Shown here: one piece after another, positions 10,744 to 58,073 of the stretch
Layout: the number at the start of each line of letters is the position of its first letter
How positions within the stretch are numbered: position 1 is the stretch's first letter
Virus genome (UHGV): UHGV-0373904
Length of the DNA stretch: 64,000 nt
Source of the DNA: a virus
Reading direction: 5' to 3' (one strand)
Notes under the pieces: model-generated
Told to the model about the DNA's origin: nothing
The model's database searches: none
What the model saw: the letters and a program-made list of their open reading frames with translations, nothing else
Program-made: the position numbers and the translations under genes

Positions 10744-11208
10744 TTACTTTGGATATACACTGTCAAGATAAATGTCAGCTTCCATTCTACGTCTGTTTTT
10801 CAGGCCGTTTGAAGTGACCTTCTTACCTTTGACTGTAACCTTGTTCCACCACTGCATAGCTTCTGCACAACCGACCTTATTACCAGCATTGTGGCGCTTG
10901 ATAAATGTAGAATCCTGCATAGCTGTGATACCGATGTTGTATGTTTCACTTACAAGTGCATCGAACTCGTTCTGAGAAGTTGGAACCTTGATAGCTTTAT
11001 TCACTGCTGCAACGAACTTCTCAACATCTGCAAGAAGATACTGTTCAGCTTGTTCAGCAGTAATTTTCATACCCATCTTAACAGGTTTTCCGTCAATACG
11101 GATTGTCCCATACCCGATTGTTGGGATTCCTGCAGAGTCTTCGTAAGCCTCTAACTTCAGACCTTCAAAGAACTTAATAGCCTCTAAACCTTTTCTTGAG
11201 AGTTGCAT
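10744..11208 (-). CDS. Endolysin, T4-lysozyme-like glycoside hydrolase family 24
   Basis: N-terminal FEGLKLEAYEDSAGIPTIGYG matches the catalytic E..D..T region of T4/lambda-type lysozymes; size 154 aa. Confidence 0.85.
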   Translation of the reverse strand: MQLSRKGLEAIKFFEGLKLEAYEDSAGIPTIGYGTIRIDGKPVKMGMKITAEQAEQYLLADVEKFVAAVNKAIKVPTSQNEFDALVSETYNIGITAMQDSTFIKRHNAGNKVGCAEAMQWWNKVTVKGKKVTSNGLKNRRRMEADIYLDSVYPK

Positions 11209-41038: not shown

Positions 41039-42226
41039 ATGGCGGTAGGTGAAATTCAAATTAGTGCCTTGCCTCAAGCAGCCTTACCAATTGACCTTAG
41101 TGATATCTTCCATCTTAAGCAGGGTATTGAGGATAAGAGATGTACTCTTGAGCAATTACTTGCTCCACACTCAAGCCTAAGAAATAACCCTCATGGTGTG
41201 ACTAAAACACAAATTGGTTTAGATAACGTTATTAATGCTCTTCAGTTAGTCGCTGCAAATAACTTATCAGATATTGTTAATGTAGCTGAGGCAAGAGCAA
41301 ATCTACAGATTATGTCTTCAGAAGAGGTTAATAACCTTGTTCAGCAACATATCAAGGACAAGAGTAACCCACACAATACAACTAAGGCACAGGTTGGTTT
41401 AAGTAATGTTCAGAACTGGACAACATCTAACCTGTATAATGAAGATGCAGATAAGTATGCTACAGCAAGAGCAGTAAATAACTTGTACAAGGCTGTTCAG
41501 GCTTCTTATCCAGTAGGTACTATCCATCTTTCTATGAACTCTGCAAACCCTTCTACATACTTAATTTGTGGAGGTACTTGGGAGTTGGTTTCAAAAGGTA
41601 GGGCATTGGTTGGCTATGACTCTGATACAAGGCCAGCAGGTTCTGTATTTGGTGCTTCGACTGTCACTTTGTCAGTTAATAACATGCCTCAACACTCACA
41701 CTCTGTATCTCTTAGTGGTGGTGGTCACACTCATAATGCAACTGTTTCAATTTCAGCTTTTGACTATGGGACTAAGACTACCAACTCTTTTGACTATGGA
41801 ACAAAGACTACTAACACAACTGGTAACCACAATCACGTTGGTAGTGGGTCAACAAGTGCTGCTGGTGCTCACAACCACAGATTGACCTATGAAGCGGGTG
41901 GTGGCCTATCGGAGAGACCTGCAATGGTTTGGTCTACAAGAAATGACCAATCATGGTACTCAGCAGATGCTGTCTGTGAAGTCGCTGGTTCGCACACCCA
42001 CTCTTTTAGCGTTACCACTAACACAACTGGTAACCATAATCATACGGTGGGTATTGGTGCTCATAGCCATACAGTTGGTATTGGTTCACACACACACAAT
42101 GGTACTGTGGCAGTTTCTTCTTCTGAGCATACACATAGTGGAAACACTAATAGTGTTGGTGGTGGACAAGCTTTCAACATTGAGCAGCCATCATTCGTGC
42201 TGTATGTATGGCAGAGAACAGCTTAA
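41039..42226 (+). CDS. Tail fibre protein with His-rich GxHxH repeats
   Basis: N-terminal repeats NPHGVTKTQIGLDNV / NPHNTTKAQVGLSNV; C-terminal HSHSVSLSGGGHTHN, GNHNHVGSG, GAHNH, GSHTHSF, GNHNHTVGIGAHSHTVGIGSHTHNG; ends ..VLYVWQRTA. Confidence 0.7.
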   Translation: MAVGEIQISALPQAALPIDLSDIFHLKQGIEDKRCTLEQLLAPHSSLRNNPHGVTKTQIGLDNVINALQLVAANNLSDIVNVAEARANLQIMSSEEVNNLVQQHIKDKSNPHNTTKAQVGLSNVQNWTTSNLYNEDADKYATARAVNNLYKAVQASYPVGTIHLSMNSANPSTYLICGGTWELVSKGRALVGYDSDTRPAGSVFGASTVTLSVNNMPQHSHSVSLSGGGHTHNATVSISAFDYGTKTTNSFDYGTKTTNTTGNHNHVGSGSTSAAGAHNHRLTYEAGGGLSERPAMVWSTRNDQSWYSADAVCEVAGSHTHSFSVTTNTTGNHNHTVGIGAHSHTVGIGSHTHNGTVAVSSSEHTHSGNTNSVGGGQAFNIEQPSFVLYVWQRTA

Positions 42227-42272: not shown

Positions 42273-44654
42273 ATGGCAGATTACAAGTTGAGTGAATTAA
42301 ACTCAATCGATACAATCCGTTCAGATGACCTTCTTCATGTCAGAGTTAAAAAGAGACCTGAAATGCTGGGTGATGAAGACCGTCGAATGACCTATCAAGA
42401 TTTCTTAGCATCTTTTAAGCTTGAGAGATTTGTTCAGATTATTGGTAGTACCATGACGGGTGATTTAGGTATTGTTAAGTTACTTTATGGTGGTAAGACA
42501 GTATTTGACCCTACAGGCTCTTCTGAGATTAATATTGGGGATGTTTTAAAGACTTTTAAAATTAACGCAAACGGTCTTAAGCTAACTATTGCAGATGCTT
42601 CAAGGTCGGCAACTGTTTATCATACCCTGAATAAGCCAAGTCCTAATGAGCTTGGGATGAGAACTAATGAAGAGAATGATGCAAGATACTCAAGATTAGC
42701 TGCAAATAACATCTTTACCTTCCAACAGGTTATTCAAGCAAATGGCGAAGCTATTAGACTAAAAAATTCTTCTGAGAACTCACCGTTGTATATTAGAGGT
42801 CAGGACAGCACTGGTGCTAATAGGTGGTATGTAGGTAATGGTTCAGGGAATGATGATGTTATTATCCACAACTACAAGACAGGTTGTGAAGTGAATCTGT
42901 CTAGTGTTGCTGCTATCAGTAAAACACTTAGAATCACTGGTCAAGTCCAACCTTCTGACTTCTCTAACTTAGATGCTAGATACTTCACACAGACAGTTGC
43001 TAATCAGAGATTTGCACAGTTAGCTGCTAATAACAATTTCACTGGCACTAACACGTTTAGCAGAAACCTACTTATTATTAGTGACAGTGCTGCTTTAAGG
43101 TTGAAAAATACTGTAGCAAATGCTGCACTATACGTTAAAGCCGAAGCTAATGATGGTTCTGGTAAGTGGTATGTAGGAAATGGTGATAATACACCTGCTG
43201 TATTCATCAGCAACTATGTGTATGGTTCTTATCTTAGACTTGACAATGGTCATGTCGCAGTAAACAAGGACTTCAGAATCACTGGTCAAGTTCAACCTTC
43301 AGATTGGGCTAACATTGACTCTAGATACATCCCAGCAGCAACTTTGAGTAACCTACCTAAACTTAATGTTGCTAACACATTTGTGAATGTGCAAACTATT
43401 GTATCAAATAATGAAGGCGTAGTATTAAGAAACTTAACACAGGGACAGCCACAATATATCCGTGGTGTTGATACCCAGAATGTATCTAGGTGGTGGGTAG
43501 GTGTGGGTGGCGCAAATTCTACTGATGTGGCATTAAACAACAGCTACTCTGGGACTCAAATTACTCTTATGCCCTCAGCGATTAAGGCTAATAAGAATCT
43601 AACCATTACTGGTCAAGTACAACCTTCTGATTGGTCTAACTTAGATGCTAGATATTTCTTAAAAACAAAACTGTTAAACCAACCTTTAATGATAAGGACA
43701 ACTAATAGGCTGGATGACCCATCAGCATTCAATAAAGATTTTTCAGGGTTTGTAAGAAACAACGGTATTGAGCAGGGTCTGAAAGATTTAGCCATCCATG
43801 TAGCACATTCTGCTGGTATTGCTCATGCCAGAGGTATTGCTTTTACATATGGGTCTAAAGGTCTTGATGTCTTCACATATGCTTATGGGTCAGATGGAAC
43901 ATATGTTGGAGAGGCACAGTTGTATTCAACGGCATTTAAACCAACCCCTTCAGATATTGGTGCATACACTAAATCAGAAACTGACCAGAAGATTGCACAG
44001 GCAATTAGTGACTCTACAGACCTTAACAAAATCTATCCAGTAGGTATTGTAACATGGTTTAACAGTAATGTTGACCCTAACACAGCGTTGCCTGGGTTAA
44101 CTTGGACGTACCTGAATAATGGTGTTGGTAGAACTATCAGAATTGCAGCAGCAAACGGTTCAGATGTTGCTACAACTGGTGGTTCAGATTCTGTGACGTT
44201 AGCTGTTGGGAACTTACCATCACATACCCATAGCTTCTCTGCTACCACTTCATCTTTTGATTATGGTACGAAGGGAACTAACAGTACTGGTGGTCATTCT
44301 CACTCTGTAAGTGGTACAACAAGTGCTGCTGGCAACCACGCTCACCACTTAGGTCTGTTATTAGTTAATGGTGGTGATGCTCAGTATGGTTACACAACTG
44401 TTAGCAACAGCAAGACAAGAACTCTTGACTGGCTTGATAGAAAAGATAACAAGTTCCCTAACACTAACACAACTGGTAACCATACACACACGTGGTCTGG
44501 TACTACAAGCGGTGCTGGTGACCATTCCCACTCTGTAGGTATTGGTGCTCACACTCATACAGTTAGTGGTAACACTGGTGGTACAGGTTCTGGTTCGGCA
44601 TTCAGTGTTACTAACCAGTTCTACAAGTTAATGGCTTGGGTAAGAACTGCTTAA
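42273..44654 (+). CDS. Tail fibre protein, three internal ~110-aa repeats and His-rich GxHxH C-terminal domain
   Basis: Three repeats each containing ITGQVQPSD(F/W)(S/A)N(L/I)D(A/S)RY; C-terminal [43 protein letters not shown]; ends ..KLMAWVRTA, similar to the end of 41039..42226. Confidence 0.7.
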
Positions 44655-48437: not shown

Positions 48438-48821
48438 TCAAATACCTGTGCAGCTTCTGTTTTCTAAGAAATACTCAACACCATACATAGCTTTTTGCAT
48501 CAAATCTTCTTTAAACTGGATACGATGATTGAGCATAGCCTGTACATCAATATCATCAGGGTGCTTCTCTTTAATATTTGCAGATTGCAGGAAATACTCT
48601 GCAAGAACACGATACTGATAGTCAGTTACCTTATCAGTCATCTCTGTTAAAGACTCTTCAGAGATTGGTTTAAGTAGTTCACCTTTAGATAGGGCAACAC
48701 CTTTAACAATCTGGCAAGTGTCTTCTGGAACACCTGATAAGTCCACATTTGGAAGTTCTGTTGCATTGACTGGTAAATTCATTGCCATAACCATTGCAGC
48801 AGCTAATAAAATCTTTTTCAT
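48438..48821 (-). CDS. Secreted/periplasmic protein with signal peptide (127 aa)
   Basis: N-terminal MKKILLAAAMVMAMNLPVNA has signal-peptide character (positive n-region, hydrophobic core, A-x-A-like cleavage site). Confidence 0.55.
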   Translation of the reverse strand: MKKILLAAAMVMAMNLPVNATELPNVDLSGVPEDTCQIVKGVALSKGELLKPISEESLTEMTDKVTDYQYRVLAEYFLQSANIKEKHPDDIDVQAMLNHRIQFKEDLMQKAMYGVEYFLENRSCTGI

Positions 48822-48865: not shown

Positions 48866-48894
48866 AAAATAAGCTATAACACCTGACTTGTCAA
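48866..48894 (-). promoter_or_regulatory. Candidate sigma70-type promoter (- strand) for the secreted-protein gene
   Basis: - strand reads aaaatctgTTGACAagtcaggtgttatagctTATTTT, with A-tract upstream. Confidence 0.5.
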
Positions 48895-50835: not shown

Positions 50836-51972
50836 TTATTCATAATCCCTAATAACTAGCCCGACAGGGAACTGTAAAGAACCCTTACGAGTCATCTTCT
50901 GGAACTGAACCGTTAAAGGCTTCCCGATAAACTCATCAGGATGCTCAGCAAGATACTGTTTCTTCTCATGAGTAGTCTTCCATGAGACATCTACAAAGAC
51001 ATTAGGAAGAGTCTCTACAACGAACTTGCCATGACCACGTTTATCAGTCTTGACACCAGTCACTTTAAACTCTTCAGTGTGCATCTTCTTGTGCTTAATC
51101 AAGAAGTACGAACGGTGACAACACTCATAGAAGGAGTCTTCAGAGATTGAACGGTACATTGCACCTTCAAACTTAGCTTCAACCCACTTATCATGAGCTT
51201 CATCAAACTCTTCCCAAGAGTTAACACGACGAGACTTAACAGGGACAACTTTACAGCCGTCTCTGAAGTCATTCAATGGTGAAGTCTCAATAATATCTCT
51301 ACGCTCAGGCCACGTCTTAGCACTGTCACAGATATCATACCAGTAGAACTGGAGTAGATGTCGGTCTGGATTGTCAGCATTCTTAATCATAGACACAATA
51401 TCTTCTAAGTCCCAACCATGAGCATAAATCTCACCATCAAAGTCTTCGACTTGTGGATGTAATTTAAGCAACAAAAGCAAATCTGGGATTAGTTCTACTG
51501 GGACGTTGTAAACAGTATTCTCACGAGAATAAGCCGTGAAGCTAACTGAATCAGTATCTCTTGAAATTCTACAACGAACACCATCAAGTTTTGGTTGAGC
51601 ATCAGCAGGGAACTTCAGATACTTTGCATGACTAACCTTTGCAGCATCATGAGCAAGCTGTACACCTACCTTCTCAGTATTCTGTGCAGACTCTTTTGTG
51701 TAAGCATAACCTTTGCGGTCAACTTGCTTTTTATACTTAGCAGCAACTTCAAAGAGAGCTTGCTGTTCAGCGTTACGCTCATTCTTTTTACCGATGTTTT
51801 TAGGTTCTGCTGTATACTCTTCAAACATCATCTTGCCATTTTCTTTACCGTAGGTTGTGATAACTTTGTCGCCTACAGCAACACATGACCAGACGTTGAA
51901 GGAACCATCTTTATTTTGTTTGTACAGAATTGTCATTTTTAACCTCTGAGTGATACCAAGTATTGCAAGCAT
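50836..51972 (-). CDS. ATP-dependent DNA ligase
   Basis: KLDGVRC adenylation motif (KxDG), downstream EGAMYR; size consistent with T7-type ligases. True start may be the internal Met (MTILYKQ, about 51936). Confidence 0.8.
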   Translation of the reverse strand: MLAILGITQRLKMTILYKQNKDGSFNVWSCVAVGDKVITTYGKENGKMMFEEYTAEPKNIGKKNERNAEQQALFEVAAKYKKQVDRKGYAYTKESAQNTEKVGVQLAHDAAKVSHAKYLKFPADAQPKLDGVRCRISRDTDSVSFTAYSRENTVYNVPVELIPDLLLLLKLHPQVEDFDGEIYAHGWDLEDIVSMIKNADNPDRHLLQFYWYDICDSAKTWPERRDIIETSPLNDFRDGCKVVPVKSRRVNSWEEFDEAHDKWVEAKFEGAMYRSISEDSFYECCHRSYFLIKHKKMHTEEFKVTGVKTDKRGHGKFVVETLPNVFVDVSWKTTHEKKQYLAEHPDEFIGKPLTVQFQKMTRKGSLQFPVGLVIRDYE

Positions 51973-52129
51973 TACATGCGTAAAGCTCTAAGTCATTTTT
52001 ATCTGGTTTATGGAAACAGTTTGACCCACAACGACACCGGAATAACTTACCATCAACACGAAGAATGAATGTTTCAAGCTCACCATCTTCTGTAAGAACT
52101 GCGTTCTGAAATTTATTATCTTTACCCAT
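51911..52129 (-). CDS. Small zinc-finger-like protein (72 aa)
   Basis: CRCGSNC ... CNACN cysteine clusters. Confidence 0.45.
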   Translation of the reverse strand: MGKDNKFQNAVLTEDGELETFILRVDGKLFRCRCGSNCFHKPDKNDLELYACNACNTWYHSEVKNDNSVQTK

Positions 52130-52285
52130 TTGTACTCTCGCCTGTGTCAGATTTTATATAAGACCTATCACTACGTCTTTTAATGAAATGTACAACGCAT
52201 TTTGGTGTATTTTTTGCATCTTTAATGTGCAACCTTTCGAAACTGTGTACTGTGAAGGTTGCATCTGTCATTGTTTGCTTAGGTT

Positions 52286-52591
52286 TCATTTTCTCTTACC
52301 ACCAATCTCTACGTCGATAACTTGAACATCACCAGCAACATCAAACTTATGAATGATACTTTCCACAGTGTAAGTCCAACCCTCAATGCGAACCAATTCA
52401 CCTTCTCGTGGGACGATTGGGTTACGTTGAGCTACGGTTGTAGTGGAGTGAACAACATCATAACAATAGATATAGTTTACTAGGGCTTCCATCGTGAAAA
52501 CCTCACTCAATAACCGTAGTATGTGATTGACCATTTTTGCCATAGCTATAAGATGTTGTTGTTTGAGAGTTTGGGCATCTGACAACAACAA
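52286..52591 (-). CDS. Hypothetical protein
   Basis: ORF; overlaps the lipoprotein gene as drawn, so the true start is probably the internal Met (MEALVNY, about 52492) preceded by GAGG. Confidence 0.4.
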   Translation of the reverse strand: MLLSDAQTLKQQHLIAMAKMVNHILRLLSEVFTMEALVNYIYCYDVVHSTTTVAQRNPIVPREGELVRIEGWTYTVESIIHKFDVAGDVQVIDVEIGGKRK

Positions 52592-52760
52592 TATCTCTGC
52601 TTATAGCATCACCATTGAGTTTGTAGATTTTGCAGTCTTGCATCTCTGGAGGGAGGCTGTAAGAAGCATCTTTGTTTTCATAAGATGGGTTGCAGCCAGC
52701 CAGAAAAATTACTCCAAGTGCAACCATTGCTTTCACACAACTCTTAACCTTATTGTTCAC
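52503..52760 (-). CDS. Lipoprotein (85-aa precursor) with LAGC lipobox
   Basis: MNNKVKSCVKAMVALGVIFLAGC: basic n-region, hydrophobic core, lipobox L-A-G-C. Confidence 0.6.
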   Translation of the reverse strand: MNNKVKSCVKAMVALGVIFLAGCNPSYENKDASYSLPPEMQDCKIYKLNGDAISRDIVVVRCPNSQTTTSYSYGKNGQSHTTVIE

Positions 52761-52892
52761 GATAGTCTACCTCTCTGTATGTTTTTAAATAGTGAGTGAT
52801 GAGTTCTGGTAATTCACTACGTTTAACGTTTGAACGAAGAAGTGTCCAGTCAAAACCTTTACCAACCCTCCCCCAGAGACTGTACATTTTCT

Positions 52893-53126
52893 TCATAGCA
52901 ACTCCAGAATATCAATACGTTCACCTTTGAGTACTCCAGTACGGTCTTTTGCAATCTTACCTTCAACAATAAGAATGTGTGCAGACCTTAAAGTGTCGCT
53001 GTTAAAGGTTTTTACGAACCTACTAGGCATGACTACAATGCACATCTCCTGAATTAACTCTGGAGTGTAGCAGTTATCATGAAGTTGCTGAATAACGTCT
53101 GCAAGTGTCATTTTTGATGTCTCCAA
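52893..53126 (-). CDS. Hypothetical protein (77 aa)
   Basis: ORF. Confidence 0.4.
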   Translation of the reverse strand: METSKMTLADVIQQLHDNCYTPELIQEMCIVVMPSRFVKTFNSDTLRSAHILIVEGKIAKDRTGVLKGERIDILELL

Positions 53127-53317
53127 TATTCAATATCTACAAGTTCTTGTGCAATGCTTTTCAGATTACCTTTCAAGAAAACCTTCTCAGAACCTGAAAG
53201 AGATGAATTGTCAATTAACCTGTTCATTCTCTCAAACAACTTCTGCTTACGATTTTTGATAGTTTCCTTTGAAGCACCTTTCATCATTGCTGCATGGGTT
53301 CTTCCACGGTGGCTCAT
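53108..53317 (-). CDS. Hypothetical basic protein (69 aa)
   Basis: ORF; Lys/Arg-rich. Confidence 0.4.
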   Translation of the reverse strand: MSHRGRTHAAMMKGASKETIKNRKQKLFERMNRLIDNSSLSGSEKVFLKGNLKSIAQELVDIEYWRHQK

Positions 53318-53368
53318 AAGCCCTCCTATACAAGATGTAGTATAAGGTACTCCTCCATGAGCACCTTG

Positions 53369-53920
53369 TCAACTTAGTTTTGCAAACTCTCCGTGGAGTT
53401 TCACAGCAGCTTCACAGTAAGCTTTATGGGCTTCTTCTGGTGTGTCAAACATACCAAGATGATAGTTTTTACCTTGTAAACGTATCATTGCTCGAAACCT
53501 TTTACTTATCTTCTGTACACCTTTTGGCAACCCAGATGGGGACTCTCTTGACCGATTGCAAGAGTTTTGTGAAGCTGTACAAACCCTTAAATTCAAGTAC
53601 CTATTGTCCCAACCGTCCCCATTCTTATGGTCAACCTGTAAGGTTTTATCAGGTAGATATCCATCCATATACAAGATAACTAAACGATTTGCTTGGTAAC
53701 CCCTTCCATCAATCAGCAACTGAACTGACTTGTGTCCATCAGTATTTGTTCTGTAGTTTCCAGCCCTCTTACCTCCAAATCTAGAGTTAAAGTTTGCATT
53801 ACCTTCTCTAAACTTCCAAGTAAAGACCCCTGTTTCGGGGTCGTAGTCCAATAGCTCCTTAAGACGAATTTCTGTAATCATTTCAACACCATCAATGTAC
53901 TTCCAACCAGCTCTTACCAA
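53369..53920 (-). CDS. HNH endonuclease with AP2 DNA-binding domain (homing endonuclease-like)
   Basis: HNH core LQVDHKNGDGWDNRYLNLRVCTASQN; C-terminal GVQKISKRFRAMIRLQGKNYHLGMFDTPEEAHKAYCEAAVKLHGEFA is AP2-like. Start may be the internal Met (about 53881), removing the overlap with the polymerase. Confidence 0.8.
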   Translation of the reverse strand: MVRAGWKYIDGVEMITEIRLKELLDYDPETGVFTWKFREGNANFNSRFGGKRAGNYRTNTDGHKSVQLLIDGRGYQANRLVILYMDGYLPDKTLQVDHKNGDGWDNRYLNLRVCTASQNSCNRSRESPSGLPKGVQKISKRFRAMIRLQGKNYHLGMFDTPEEAHKAYCEAAVKLHGEFAKLS

Positions 53921-56621
53921 CCTTACCTGTGCCAGTTACAAGCGTCTCACTCTTCAAACCTAAATTCTTAGATGCCTGACCATACATCCAGTCAGTTATG
54001 GCTTTAACTTCTTGAGTCATACTTTCTGGGCATTCCCAACTGTTTTCATCGTGGTATGCCAGCAAAAGCCTAGCACCAATTGCTGGTTTTCGTCCATTTA
54101 ATTTTGTCAATCCTTCTTCACATGCTCTTCTACAAGCAAGGTTAATTGCCTCATTTTGAATCTGAGCCTCTGAACCCATGAGCAAATAATTCAATAACTT
54201 ATGTGGAGATTTACACCACAACCAAGCTCCAGCAACCTTTACAAAACCCCCTTTAGAGATTGCAGCAGTCTTACCAAACACCTCTTCAAGTGCCTTTTTA
54301 GTTGCTTTGTAGTCAGCTTCCAAGTCATCTAGTAGCTTCTTAATTTTAGGCAAACGAATAAAGTAAGTTTGTTTAGTCAGTGCACCTTCCTGAGTAGTTG
54401 CAGCTTTAATCGTCTTAGCAAACTTCTCATCCCCTGCACCGAACAGCAGTGCATAGATACCATTCTTAGCTTTCTTACGACCTTTACTAATCTCATGAAG
54501 AAGATTCTCATCCTGAGTAGCTCGACAAGTCAAGATATCCTGCTCATCATTCAAGCTAAAGTAAATACTGTTCAGTGTGTGTGCATCAGTCCCTGAATAG
54601 ACAACGTAAAGGTCATTCTCAGAGTCATAGCGAAGGTACTTATCAATCTCTGGATTGAGGTACTCATCAAAATGTTTGCAGTAATAGCGTCCATCTTCTT
54701 GACGAATAAACTCAATCTCTTCTTTACCTTGCGTCACCGCTTTGGTGAAGTCTTTGTCACCCATAAAGTTACAAAGAAGAACTAGCTGGGCTGAGTTCAT
54801 GTCTACAGAGACGACGTTAGTACCTTCTTCACAAATCCACACTGCCCTCATTGGTTCCCCATAGACAGCAGCACCAGACGGTACGTTTACAATACCATAT
54901 TGTGTCATACGTCCAGTTGAAGTACCAAACACCATTGCACCAGCACTAAGGCGACCATCAGGACGAATCTGGTTCAACCAACCTTTTTCATCATCCTTTG
55001 AGTTCTCAATAGTTCTACGTCGGTGCATCAAAGTATAGTATTTAGCAATCTTCTGTCCAAGCTCGCCTTCAATCGTATCATAAGATGATTCAGTAAGTTT
55101 TGGTGAAGTACGGATTAAGCAAGGCTCAAGCAAATCTGTGTACTTCTTCACAGACCAGTTATGCTCAATGTACTGGACACCTTCATGTTCAACATAACTC
55201 AAGCCACACCGTTCAACCATCTCCTGCCACTTAGGATGCTTTGTAATCATCTTTTTGTTGTCTTTGAAACGACAAACTTTGACAGGGCGACCATCTGAGT
55301 CTTTCTTGTAGTTCCAGTCATCTGGAATCCAACCAACTGATTTCAAGTAGTCTTTAACAACTGCTACCTGAGTCATACGAGAAACTTCGAACTCAATTGG
55401 TGTATATGGTGCATCAATCAATCCTGTGTAGCGACTTGACTCAAGTTCAAAGTGGTTAACAACATGGCTGTTATAGTACTTCACAGTTTTAACAGTTTTT
55501 ACTGGCTTCCAGTCTTTGCATTTCTTACCAATCTTTGCATTCAACTCGTTGCAAATTGCACGGGCATCCTTCATTGCTACAAAGCCTTCCTTGTACTCTT
55601 CACCAGTTACAGAGTTGGTTGGTGTATAGCAATTTCTCTTTTCAATGTTAAAAATCTTTGTAGTTGGCTTACCAAATGGTTTTATTTCATAAGTCTGCAT
55701 CTCGCCATTACGTACCTGCTGACGATACTTTGTCTTAGGGTACTTGGTAATTCTTTTCAGTCCATCTGCATGACCAAATGCTTCAACATACTCATTCCAA
55801 GCTTTTGCAAACTCTTCTCCAGTCACTTTACCTTTGGTCTTAATAGTTGGAGGTAGGTGTGGTTCAACCTCTGAAGCAAGTTCGTTAGTTAACTTGTCAA
55901 GTTCCTTTACATGAAACTCCATAAGCTCTTTATCAGCTTTCCAACCATTGATAGCCTGTTGACTCATCCAGAAAGATGTCTCTTTAGCTCGCATGTAAGT
56001 TTCATAAGTGTCTATGCCACACTTCTTAAGCTTGAGATACTCGTTATCAAGTGCCCGTTTGGTTTTGGCGTTAATACGGATATCTTCTACAACACGAGTG
56101 AAGATTTCTGCATTCCACACACCCCAGTGTTCAATCTCTGGTTTACGAACACCAACACGAGCACCCCATGCAGCCAAACCATGAGCACCTTTATAACCCT
56201 TTGGAGTTGGTCTATCCATCCACTGAACACGAGACTGGATAAGAGAATCCTGAAAGAAATTACTCCACGGCTTACATTTTGGATTATCAAAGTTCCATAA
56301 ATCCGGTGCAATGTGATTGAAAACCCACCAGTCATAACCGAGACCATTATGGATACAAAGTCGTTTTGCCTTCAACGCAAACTCAATACCTTCACGTAAT
56401 CCACCCTTGATGTACTTAGTGTACTTGTGACCGAGAATAGGTTCATCAGTAAAGACCCATACTGGTGGTTCTTCGTCGTCAGATTTGTAGTCTGCGAAAG
56501 CCATTACGTGAACTTTAGTGAACTCAAGGAGTAAACCATCAGTTTCTGTATCACCAACTAAATGTAAGTTTTTAAAATCTACGTTTTCCATTTTTACTCC
56601 CTCTAAAATCATTAACCTCAT
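53892..56621 (-). CDS. DNA polymerase, family A with 3'-5' exonuclease domain
   Basis: Exo I motif DTETDGL; SVDMNSAQLVLL (motif A-like), KNGIYALLFGAG (motif B-like), LLAYHDEN (motif C). Likely true start is ATG at 56591 (MENVDF..) preceded by AGGGAG. Confidence 0.9.
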   Translation of the reverse strand: MRLMILEGVKMENVDFKNLHLVGDTETDGLLLEFTKVHVMAFADYKSDDEEPPVWVFTDEPILGHKYTKYIKGGLREGIEFALKAKRLCIHNGLGYDWWVFNHIAPDLWNFDNPKCKPWSNFFQDSLIQSRVQWMDRPTPKGYKGAHGLAAWGARVGVRKPEIEHWGVWNAEIFTRVVEDIRINAKTKRALDNEYLKLKKCGIDTYETYMRAKETSFWMSQQAINGWKADKELMEFHVKELDKLTNELASEVEPHLPPTIKTKGKVTGEEFAKAWNEYVEAFGHADGLKRITKYPKTKYRQQVRNGEMQTYEIKPFGKPTTKIFNIEKRNCYTPTNSVTGEEYKEGFVAMKDARAICNELNAKIGKKCKDWKPVKTVKTVKYYNSHVVNHFELESSRYTGLIDAPYTPIEFEVSRMTQVAVVKDYLKSVGWIPDDWNYKKDSDGRPVKVCRFKDNKKMITKHPKWQEMVERCGLSYVEHEGVQYIEHNWSVKKYTDLLEPCLIRTSPKLTESSYDTIEGELGQKIAKYYTLMHRRRTIENSKDDEKGWLNQIRPDGRLSAGAMVFGTSTGRMTQYGIVNVPSGAAVYGEPMRAVWICEEGTNVVSVDMNSAQLVLLCNFMGDKDFTKAVTQGKEEIEFIRQEDGRYYCKHFDEYLNPEIDKYLRYDSENDLYVVYSGTDAHTLNSIYFSLNDEQDILTCRATQDENLLHEISKGRKKAKNGIYALLFGAGDEKFAKTIKAATTQEGALTKQTYFIRLPKIKKLLDDLEADYKATKKALEEVFGKTAAISKGGFVKVAGAWLWCKSPHKLLNYLLMGSEAQIQNEAINLACRRACEEGLTKLNGRKPAIGARLLLAYHDENSWECPESMTQEVKAITDWMYGQASKNLGLKSETLVTGTGKVGKSWLEVH

Positions 56622-57272: not shown

Positions 57273-58073
57273 ATGAATATCGATGTAGAAAAGATGCTTG
57301 AAGAGAAAGGTGTTGATGAAGCATTCTTAATCAATGCCGTAGAAAGCATGGCTATGATTCTTCGTGGTAATAACTACACAGAACAGTTTATGCCTGCAAG
57401 CTATAACTTGCCTGAAGACAAGTCTGATAACGGTGCTTTTGCAGAACAGGTTAATATGATGTTGACAGACACTACACTTGCTCTGGCATCTATTGCGGTT
57501 GGTGTTGATGCACTTGCTGAGTTCATTTTTTATGAAATGCAAAAGAATGACTATATCAGGATGTCAGACGAAGATAAGGAACTGTTGCTGACTAAGGACA
57601 CAGATTTCATTATTGATACGCTTATCTCATCAACGAGTGCTGTTATGGCTGCTCTTGAGAAGCGAATGGAAGAGAAGCTGTCACGATATGAAAAGCTTGA
57701 TTGGGGTGTAGAGGAATTAAACCCACGAATCAAAGAGATTATCCAGCAAACCAAAGATTCTTTGGAAGAAGCTGTAAAAAATGATTCTGTAGCTGACATA
57801 GAACCACTTCAGGTGAAAGTTGCATTGATGATTCCAGCCATCTCTACGATGATGAATATCGTTGCACTAATCCAGCTTTCACAGATGATGGGCACAAGCA
57901 TTGAGTTCATTGAGAGTATGACTGGTGGTGTTAGTATGCAAGCAATCAATGATGTTCTGGTGAGCATTGGTGCTTCAATCATTGAAGAGAAGCTTCGCAT
58001 TAACTTTGGTGATGATTTTGTGAAGCAAATCTCAGCTATGGCTGAAAAAGAGTCTGCTGAGCAACTGCACTAA
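57273..58073 (+). CDS. Hypothetical protein (266 aa)
   Basis: ORF, coupled to the upstream ORF. Confidence 0.5.
   Translation: MNIDVEKMLEEKGVDEAFLINAVESMAMILRGNNYTEQFMPASYNLPEDKSDNGAFAEQVNMMLTDTTLALASIAVGVDALAEFIFYEMQKNDYIRMSDEDKELLLTKDTDFIIDTLISSTSAVMAALEKRMEEKLSRYEKLDWGVEELNPRIKEIIQQTKDSLEEAVKNDSVADIEPLQVKVALMIPAISTMMNIVALIQLSQMMGTSIEFIESMTGGVSMQAINDVLVSIGASIIEEKLRINFGDDFVKQISAMAEKESAEQLH

Follow-up and report, generated by a model that had tools for sequence, protein, structure and literature searches.

The window analyzed here, a stretch of 64,000 nucleotides (64 kb) from the virus genome UHGV-0373904, carries on its minus strand a small gene at positions 52503 to 52760 that starts with GTG (52758 to 52760), stops with TGA (52503 to 52505) and encodes a precursor of 85 aa. 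The reading frame is supported by the ORF list and the sequence, by an exact match to AAQ14697.1, and by pairwise dN/dS values of 0.02 to 0.22 in this frame among seven Ounavirinae orthologues. The precursor reads MNNKVKSCVKAMVALGVIFLAGC followed by NPSYENKDASYSLPPEMQDCKIYKLNGDAISRDIVVVRCPNSQTTTSYSYGKNGQSHTTVIE, with NPSY directly after MNNKVKSCVKAMVALGVIFLAGC. In the minus-strand sequence, an SD-like GAGAGG (52770 to 52775) lies 9 nt 5' of the GTG, within the 3' end of an upstream 48-aa gene on the ORF list that overlaps the lipoprotein start by 11 nt, and the next gene downstream begins 8 nt past the lipoprotein stop. A second in-frame GTG at codon 9 (52734 to 52736, minus strand) would give a 77-aa precursor that begins with MKAMVALGVIFLAGC and has the same lipobox; most relatives begin with MWK, within one codon of this alternative start.

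Residues 1 to 22 of the precursor (52695 to 52760, minus strand) make up a predicted signal peptide with a basic n-region, MNNKVKSCVK, that contains three lysines, and a hydrophobic core of nine residues, AMVALGVIF. It ends in the lipobox L20-A21-G22-C23 (52692 to 52703, minus strand), whose Cys23 does not vary among 148 family members and is predicted to be lipidated and to begin the mature protein; Asn occupies position +2. Both signal and lipobox are kept in the orthologues despite their differing N termini. In a six-frame scan of the 64 kb, the combination of n-region, uncharged core and lipobox was found in this ORF only, at its two starts, and this uniqueness, together with the low dN/dS values, argues that the signal is more than a chance resemblance. 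From the sequence and the established rules for lipoproteins, it is a well-supported prediction that the product is a Sec/SPase II prolipoprotein, lipidated at Cys23 and sorted by Lol to the outer membrane, where it would carry a disulfide-stapled beta domain in the periplasm. The first-pass annotation had placed an 85-aa precursor at exactly these coordinates, although without naming the strand, and had called its signal (basic n-region, hydrophobic core, LAGC) a textbook one; the translation and the six-frame scan bear out that description.

The mature domain comprises 63 residues (52506 to 52694, minus strand) and is of the DUF4884, or phrog_902, type, as indicated by a phrog_902 match at an E value of 2.9e-18 that covers residues 2 to 83, by the profile search and alignment described below, and by AlphaFold2 models. 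It contains the family motif Y.LP.EL.DCK.Y...VVRCPNS.TTT.Y..GK, which in the window protein takes the form YSLPPEMQDCKIYKLNGDAISRDIVVVRCPNSQTTTSYSYGK. Two mature-domain cysteines, Cys43 (52632 to 52634, minus strand) and Cys62 (52575 to 52577, minus strand), the latter inside the RCPNS motif, are invariant in the 148 sequences and are probably joined in a disulfide. Modeling with the 148-sequence alignment gave models of moderate quality, with pLDDT values of 71 (precursor) and 70 (mature domain), in which the mature part is predicted to be a beta meander of four to five strands behind a short tether. In a Foldseek search with this moderate model (pLDDT 70 to 71), no PDB entry matched at an E value below 1, and the viral library yielded only uncharacterized family members from phages, some carrying the name "Lipoprotein"; when the sequence of the protein was searched against the PDB, the matches were confined to lipoprotein signal peptides. 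Within the limits that model quality sets on such a statement, these results hint weakly that the mature fold may lack a recognizable solved counterpart. A reading of the "DIVVVR" strand as a TonB box was dropped, since it is an ordinary beta strand in the predicted fold.

The protein matches Felix O1 gp170 (AAQ14697.1, "hypothetical protein Felix01p170," UniProt Q6KGD0) at every residue, and an exact-sequence look-up found this sequence recorded on 116 contigs, in all of them as hypothetical. The 6 kb surrounding the gene shares 92 to 95% DNA identity with many Felixounavirus genomes, among them LMP34, Alf5, Mushroom and ekra. Together, these two observations identify the window, by its sequence, as that of a Felix O1-type virulent myophage. 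Between this phage and the Citrobacter phage Mordin, dS is about 1.7 and thus saturated; 8 of the 63 mature-domain positions differ (approximately 87% identity), and the replacements mostly fall in the signal peptide. The mature domain is nearly constant among phages of Salmonella, E. coli, Shigella and Citrobacter. By these comparisons the flagged gene is real and under strong purifying selection, and its sequence predicts a genuine small outer-membrane lipoprotein. Frameshifted copies also occur (P0012 and P0014), indicating that the gene is dispensable in some settings at least.

The lipoprotein gene lies within a probable transcription unit on the minus strand (50836 to 56621), which we infer from the overlapping or abutting start and stop codons in the ORF map and from the annotations of relatives. 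The order along the minus strand is DNA polymerase (53892 to 56621), an HNH endonuclease (53369 to 53920), three small ORFs, the lipoprotein, three further small ORFs and DNA ligase (50836 to 51972), so that the lipoprotein is the fourth of seven small ORFs between the endonuclease and the ligase. No strong promoter-like site was found directly 5' of the lipoprotein gene. Its position between polymerase and ligase is kept in Mushroom, ASO1B, wV8, Tribble, Mordin and ESh21, which represent Felixounavirus and Mooglevirus, and the neighboring small genes all belong to PHROGs of unknown function. Judging from gene position, the lipoprotein is probably cotranscribed with the replication genes and made at early or middle times, long before lysis. 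Elsewhere in the window, two tail-fiber genes (41039 to 42226 and 42273 to 44654) are encoded on the plus strand, 7.8 kb and at least 12 genes from the lipoprotein gene, and the endolysin gene (10744 to 11208, minus strand) is approximately 41 kb away. The ORF at 48438 to 48821 (minus strand) encodes a protein with a Sec-type signal, MKKILLAAAMVMAMNLPVNA followed by TE, and is preceded by a promoter-like TTGACA-17-TATTTT at 48894 to 48866. Thus, the earlier placement of the lipoprotein gene in the replication block was correct, and the nearby secreted protein that had been described as having its own promoter does have both a signal of that kind and a promoter-like site.

By its sequence, the window protein is a member of the DUF4884/phrog_902 family. 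A profile search that was built from the orthologues and run against 1.84 billion representative proteins recovered 652 clusters (50% identity) at an E value of 1e-3 or lower, 102 of them at 1e-10 or lower; among the best 150 of the 652 clusters, nearly all proteins are 61 to 128 aa long, with one of 137 aa. All 148 aligned family members match phrog_902. Every relative carries the label PF16225 (DUF4884) in precomputed tables; our own hmmscan against a local copy of Pfam-A gave no match for the window protein or for 148 relatives, and NCBIfam scans likewise gave none. The family consensus is LxGC, about 20 residues, YxLPxELxDCKxY, a loop and VVRCPNSxTTTxYxxGK, and the window protein has its hallmarks: the lipobox, two cysteines 17 to 19 residues apart and the VVRCPNSxTTT..GK core. 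In the alignment of 148 sequences, Cys23, Cys43 and Cys62 are invariant, and Pro37, Pro63, Thr67, Gly74 and Lys75 are at least 90% conserved. The lipobox and the two-cysteine core were present in 230 of the 248 relatives retrieved, with a cysteine spacing of 17 to 19 residues in 203 of these 230; RCPNS was found in 173 of the 248, and only 12% of relatives have Asp at +2.

The distribution of the family is wide. A tblastn search located it in 592 phage records, which annotate it as hypothetical, and outside the Ounavirinae its carriers include Vibrio Demerecviridae, Aeromonas phage PAc, the Acinetobacter T4-like phage Acj61, Obolenskvirus and ME3, jumbo phages of Serratia, Erwinia and Yersinia, Asteriusvirus-type jumbo phages of E. 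coli, and phages of approximately 140 to 155 kb that infect Cronobacter, Pectobacterium, Enterobacter, Serratia and Klebsiella. The family spans Felixounavirus and T4-like, T5-like, T1-like, rV5-like and jumbo phages of enteric, Vibrio, Aeromonas and Acinetobacter hosts. The T1-like members form a remote branch that is named "DUF4884 domain-containing protein" in the NCBI nomenclature; the protein of the T1-like phage JLBYU26 aligned with the family profile in hhalign at 94.7% probability over 64 columns that include both cysteines. The copies of Felixounavirus and of the E. coli jumbo phages are only 35 to 38% identical although the host is shared, a level of divergence that, as far as sequence can tell, agrees neither with a target that is strictly host specific nor with one that is obviously universal. 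Searches of the literature turned up neither a characterized family member nor a Felixounavirus transcriptome.

In every phage that was examined, the family gene lies among small early-type genes close to replication functions: a primase gene in Acj61, a helicase gene in BP10 and a ligase gene in Vibrio phage 70E37.1. A conserved two-gene module was rejected, since the flanking genes of six phage lineages have no mutual similarity, and a gene that keeps no conserved neighbor is best regarded as a stand-alone module. In Acj61, the family gene is directly upstream of p057, which is annotated as hypothetical and proved to be a Spackle homologue (phrog_1586; E value, 9e-17). It is followed by 61.1 and 61, an order that resembles the sp-61.2-61.1-61 cluster of T4. 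Acj61 thus encodes two periplasm-directed early proteins side by side, and the idea that the family protein serves there as a nonorthologous replacement for Spackle was discarded, because its neighbor is itself the Spackle homologue. The T4-like phage Aeh1 has no family member or comparable arrangement in its 41-61 region, and the Acj61 adjacency is a single case; a functional parallel drawn from so few cases would be guilt by association. The search for Spackle homologues gave 927 records, mainly from phages with names pointing to Escherichia, Klebsiella, Shigella and other enterobacteria; among the matches listed, their carriers and those of DUF4884 do not overlap.

Two other genomes are relevant here. 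In fEgEco12, the family gene clusters with a second, unrelated lipoprotein gene. The label "lytic conversion lipoprotein" attached to g526 and g528 of this phage is not backed by homology; of the two, g526 falls in DUF4884 and g528 in the unrelated phrog_31263. For the T1-like phage Henu8, ORF6 is listed as a DUF4884 protein, ORF45 as an RBP-linked Cor and ORF61 as a spanin, and this presence of all three in a single genome argues that the role of the DUF4884 protein is distinct from those of Cor and of the spanin. The cor gene of Henu8 is approximately 1 kb from the central tail-fiber gene, with two genes between them. Its relative pSf-1 has a Cor-like lipoprotein gene, approximately 1 kb from a tail-protein gene with one gene between them, and has no DUF4884 gene.

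Of the routes to superinfection exclusion in Gram-negative hosts, the one through small phage lipoproteins is understood best, and the first-pass annotation had proposed that the protein acts in this way, by blocking the phage's own receptor. To our knowledge, the characterized examples (Llp, Cor and Rtp45) all come from siphophages, are RBP-linked and block a protein receptor. The Llp protein of T5 (NC_005859) matches phrog_1119, "Cor superinfection exclusion protein," at an E value of 1.1e-19, and llp is 80 nt from the RBP gene oad. Like Llp and Cor, the window protein is a small lipoprotein of a virulent phage with an SPase II signal, an OM-type sorting residue, approximately 60 mature residues that include cysteines, and probable synthesis before lysis. 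Homology to them was nonetheless rejected: the window protein matches only phrog_902 and not phrog_1119, and an hhalign comparison of the family profile with T5 Llp aligned 19 columns, all in the signal peptide, and no part of the mature domain. Rtp45 of phage Rtp (PDB 9RPS) is a lipoprotein of approximately 6 kDa, with one disulfide and a beta hairpin, that binds LptDE and docks by beta-sheet augmentation at its periplasmic rim (PMC12685063). It would be a plausible mechanistic template for the window protein, in that it docks on a conserved outer-membrane machine, but it is RBP-linked and comes from a siphophage with LptD as receptor, whereas the window gene is not RBP-linked and belongs to a myophage of a type reported to bind LPS; the PDB searches found no Rtp45-like sequence or fold, provided that 9RPS was in the copies searched. 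T4 Spackle (gene 61.3, phrog_1586), the inhibitor of the gp5 tail lysozyme, is likewise small, early, periplasm directed and encoded among replication genes, but it is a soluble protein of another family, with a Sec signal and no lipobox, and the window protein does not match phrog_1586.

These comparisons bear on how the protein might act. The reading in which it is a component of lysis, as an o-spanin or as an accessory or regulator of the spanin or holin pathway that is encoded away from the lysis genes, is already largely refuted and retains hardly any likelihood. Like o-spanins of the Rz1 type, the window protein is a phage outer-membrane lipoprotein of similar length, with the LAGC lipobox and Asn at +2 as its OM signal; the lysis genes of the Ounavirinae are scattered, with the endolysin gene at 10.7 kb in the window and the spanin genes near rIIAB; and 6 of the 148 family members weakly match a "Rz-like spanin" PHROG (best E value, 5.8e-5). 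These matches, however, are at the level expected from a signal peptide only, and the window protein itself has none. In Mordin, an overlapping pair of Rz-like i-spanin and o-spanin genes is annotated just downstream of rIIA/rIIB, and homologues of its o-spanin, often annotated as o-spanin or i-spanin, occur in approximately 300 records that include the close window relatives Alf5 and adrianh. This canonical Ounavirinae pair is located outside the 64-kb window. No i-spanin-like partner was found beside the lipoprotein gene, whose 48-aa and 69-aa neighbors have no visible hydrophobic segment in their translations, and the gene itself sits in the replication string, away from the late genes and from any lysis context. 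The mature part of a typical o-spanin is a short proline-rich segment, unlike the conserved beta fold predicted here. Identity as an o-spanin was rejected on these grounds, the canonical pair elsewhere and the missing partner, and the first-pass annotation, which had argued against an o-spanin from the distance to the endolysin gene, was right on this point. Blocking of the phage's own receptor, in which the lipoprotein would bind the periplasmic face of an outer-membrane receptor as Llp and Cor bind FhuA or Rtp45 binds LptD, is also very unlikely. Its 63 mature residues and putative disulfide place it in the size class and topology of Llp (61 mature residues) and Rtp45 (PMC12685063), its expression probably precedes lysis, and the target of Rtp45 indicates that an essential, conserved outer-membrane machine can be blocked and that a TonB-dependent transporter is not required. 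Yet Felix O1-type phages are reported to use LPS rather than an outer-membrane protein as receptor (PMC8594841), which separates them from systems in which FhuA is inactivated from the periplasm. The gene is far from the tail-fiber genes and on the opposite strand, whereas llp abuts an RBP gene and genes of the cor and rtp45 type are located in the RBP locus. The receptor-binding tips of both fibers are highly variable within the genus (PMC12609058), while the mature domain is conserved. Moreover, the phages that carry the family differ widely in receptor type and adsorption device; Henu8 is listed with both Cor and DUF4884, remote homology of this T1-like branch having been confirmed on its relative JLBYU26; and neither phrog_1119 nor any solved chain shows homology to the window protein (Rtp45 being covered if 9RPS was in the PDB copies searched). 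Thus, of the earlier interpretation, the prolipoprotein in the replication block that is not an o-spanin stands, and the blocking of the phage's own receptor in the manner of Llp or Cor is poorly supported, given the reported LPS receptor and the lack of RBP linkage and of Llp/Cor homology. A broader role in superinfection exclusion or at the envelope would still be plausible.

Our own proposal, which we advance tentatively and rate as possible but short of probable, is that the protein is an envelope-directed effector that targets a conserved component of the envelope, in the service of exclusion or of envelope protection. The lipoprotein would be made at early or middle times with the replication genes and, once sorted by Lol, would operate as a stand-alone periplasmic effector, binding a conserved component of the envelope rather than a phage-specific receptor. 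The envelope of the infected cell would thereby be converted, most plausibly so that secondary infection is excluded or so that the envelope is protected until programmed lysis. The logic would be analogous to that of T5 Llp or T4 Spackle, with an unrelated fold and a different target. We count in favor of this proposal the strong selection, the width of the family, the polymerase-ligase synteny, the lipobox signal and the stand-alone placement, as well as the Spackle neighbor in Acj61, the second lipoprotein in fEgEco12 and the co-occurrence in Henu8. Against it we count the frameshifted copies, the divergence between copies from phages of one host, the moderate quality of the models and the isolation of the Acj61 case. 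The main competitor, which we regard as unlikely, is takeover of the host envelope or counterdefense rather than exclusion. Here, the lipoprotein would inhibit a conserved periplasmic or outer-membrane protein of the host, for which a lytic transglycosylase, a protease, an envelope-stress sensor or an outer-membrane biogenesis machine are candidates, and would thereby preserve envelope integrity, forestall premature or abortive lysis, or adjust when lysis occurs. Strong purifying selection and a spread over phage families and host genera would fit a conserved host target, as would the location of the gene amid accessory genes of early or middle type and its lack of a phage partner gene, and the short tether would put the domain at the inner leaflet of the outer membrane, near outer-membrane lipoproteins and the periplasmic turns of outer-membrane proteins. 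However, no homology or fold match points to any of these candidates, the copies from phages of the same host share only 35 to 38% identity, and the Spackle adjacency in Acj61 leans slightly toward exclusion. A more specific version of an envelope role, in which the family would represent a pan-phage class of effectors in the periplasm, docking on a conserved machine of outer-membrane biogenesis or tethering, such as LptDE, BAM, Lol or Tol-Pal, seems to us distinctly improbable as it stands.

The gene and its family had already been catalogued with no function assigned, and databases list the exact protein, under the Felix O1 genome record, as hypothetical. The new contributions are a delimited family, the rejection of both the spanin and the Llp/Cor interpretations, and the argument from co-occurrence; the protein is a well-documented candidate rather than a discovery. 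DUF4884 proteins differ from the characterized exclusion lipoproteins in that they appear unrelated to them in sequence and predicted fold, are not RBP-linked and are strongly conserved, and they are found across most major groups of virulent phages of Gammaproteobacteria, LPS-binding myophages included.

If docking on an outer-membrane machine is true, it would amount to "lytic conversion" of the envelope that is independent of the receptor. Felix O1 and other LPS-binding myophages could then stop superinfection, or the loss of progeny on debris, even in the absence of a protein receptor that could be blocked, and the retention of a DUF4884 gene alongside Cor/Llp or Spackle would be explained. 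Discovery of the target would show what a family of several hundred clusters does and could possibly reveal a conserved weak point of the outer membrane that is accessible from the periplasm. Felix O1 is used both diagnostically and therapeutically, and cross-exclusion, if it is caused by the lipoprotein, would be relevant to the design of phage cocktails.

The lipoprotein is accompanied in the replication region by the product of the gene at 48438..48821 (minus strand), a second protein that is predicted to be periplasm directed. This 127-amino-acid protein begins with a Sec-type signal peptide, MKKILLAAAMVMAMNLPVNA, which is followed by TELP, and it contains two cysteines. A promoter-like TTGACA-17-TATTTT element for the gene was read from the sequence at 48894-48866 (minus strand), and a terminator-like hairpin is located upstream of both the gene and this element, at 49196-49181 (minus strand). 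The first-pass annotation had described a secreted protein with its own promoter at this position; a predicted signal of the Sec type and a promoter-like site are indeed present. The protein matched phrog_4332, a family of unknown function, and had no match to the PHROG of Spackle, the periplasmic inhibitor of the T4 gp5 tail lysozyme.

The string of genes that includes the lipoprotein gene is adjoined by a mobile-element polymorphism, namely, the presence or absence of an HNH/AP2 homing endonuclease gene (53369..53920, minus strand) that shares 29 nt with the 3' end of the DNA polymerase gene. The endonuclease gene is found at this junction in the window, Mushroom, and ASO1B and is absent from the corresponding junction in wV8 and Mordin; in the Mushroom annotation, the polymerase is split into two coding sequences. 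Also within the replication region is a gene (57273..58073, plus strand) that is labelled a minor tail protein in its relatives and by phrog_4251. It is flanked by an unknown gene and by genes for a dNMP kinase, a primase/helicase, and an exonuclease, and the polymerase gene separates it from the structural block. Its label as a tail protein may be a misannotation passed on from earlier records.

In precomputed tables and in NCBI product names, the lipoprotein family carries the label PF16225 (DUF4884); however, our own hmmscan searches against a local copy of Pfam-A gave no DUF4884 match for the window protein or for 148 relatives, even at an E value of ≤10 for those scanned singly. This mismatch may reflect a different model version or a missing model. 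In Escherichia phage fEgEco12, two genes are annotated as encoding a lytic conversion lipoprotein: g526 (L006 3007..3258), which is a DUF4884/phrog_902 member, and g528 (L006 3620..3895), which encodes an unrelated lipoprotein of phrog_31263. The g528 product did not match the PHROG of the exclusion lipoproteins Llp and Cor, and the alignment of T5 Llp with the family profile, which was built with relatives of g526, was confined to the signal peptide. The shared name looks like a transfer based solely on the description "small lipoprotein."

Acj61p057 of Acinetobacter phage Acj61 (L007 3280..3591) is annotated as a hypothetical protein and matched phrog_1586, "spackle periplasmic" (E value, 9e-17). 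In this protein, a signal peptide is accompanied by two cysteines. Its gene lies upstream of 61.1 and 61, like sp in T4, and has the DUF4884 lipoprotein gene of Acj61 as its immediate upstream neighbor. No Acinetobacter phage was among the matches listed in a tblastn search with T4 Sp as the query.

One family member, with the lipobox LSGC (L004 8001..8255; also L005), is encoded on contig Ga0495683_0000001 of JGI metagenome 3300047323. At 2.23 Mb (28% GC), this contig is far larger than any known phage; an endosymbiont, a giant virus, and a chimeric assembly are possible explanations. Among the genes near the family member are those for ankyrin-repeat proteins, for a cysteinyl-tRNA synthetase, and for a dUTPase, together with many that have no Pfam match.

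Some subfamilies (P0025, P0034, P0095, P0166, and P0227; also P0071, P0121, and P0159) carry C-terminal extensions. One such extension is a tail ending in ALKKLTPEERKALGL, and another is made up of at least one copy of a short (T)VVIDGVxY motif, which occurs in 69 of the 248 relatives. Both are missing from the Felix O1-type protein. In two Felixounavirus-like metagenomic contigs, the lipoprotein gene is frameshifted (P0012 and P0014), and the products retain the N-terminal 43 to 47 residues before continuing into an unrelated cysteine-rich tail that includes CCCQMSKLSNNNIL. Some relatives thus carry an inactivated lipoprotein gene, which shows that it is dispensable, at least under some conditions.
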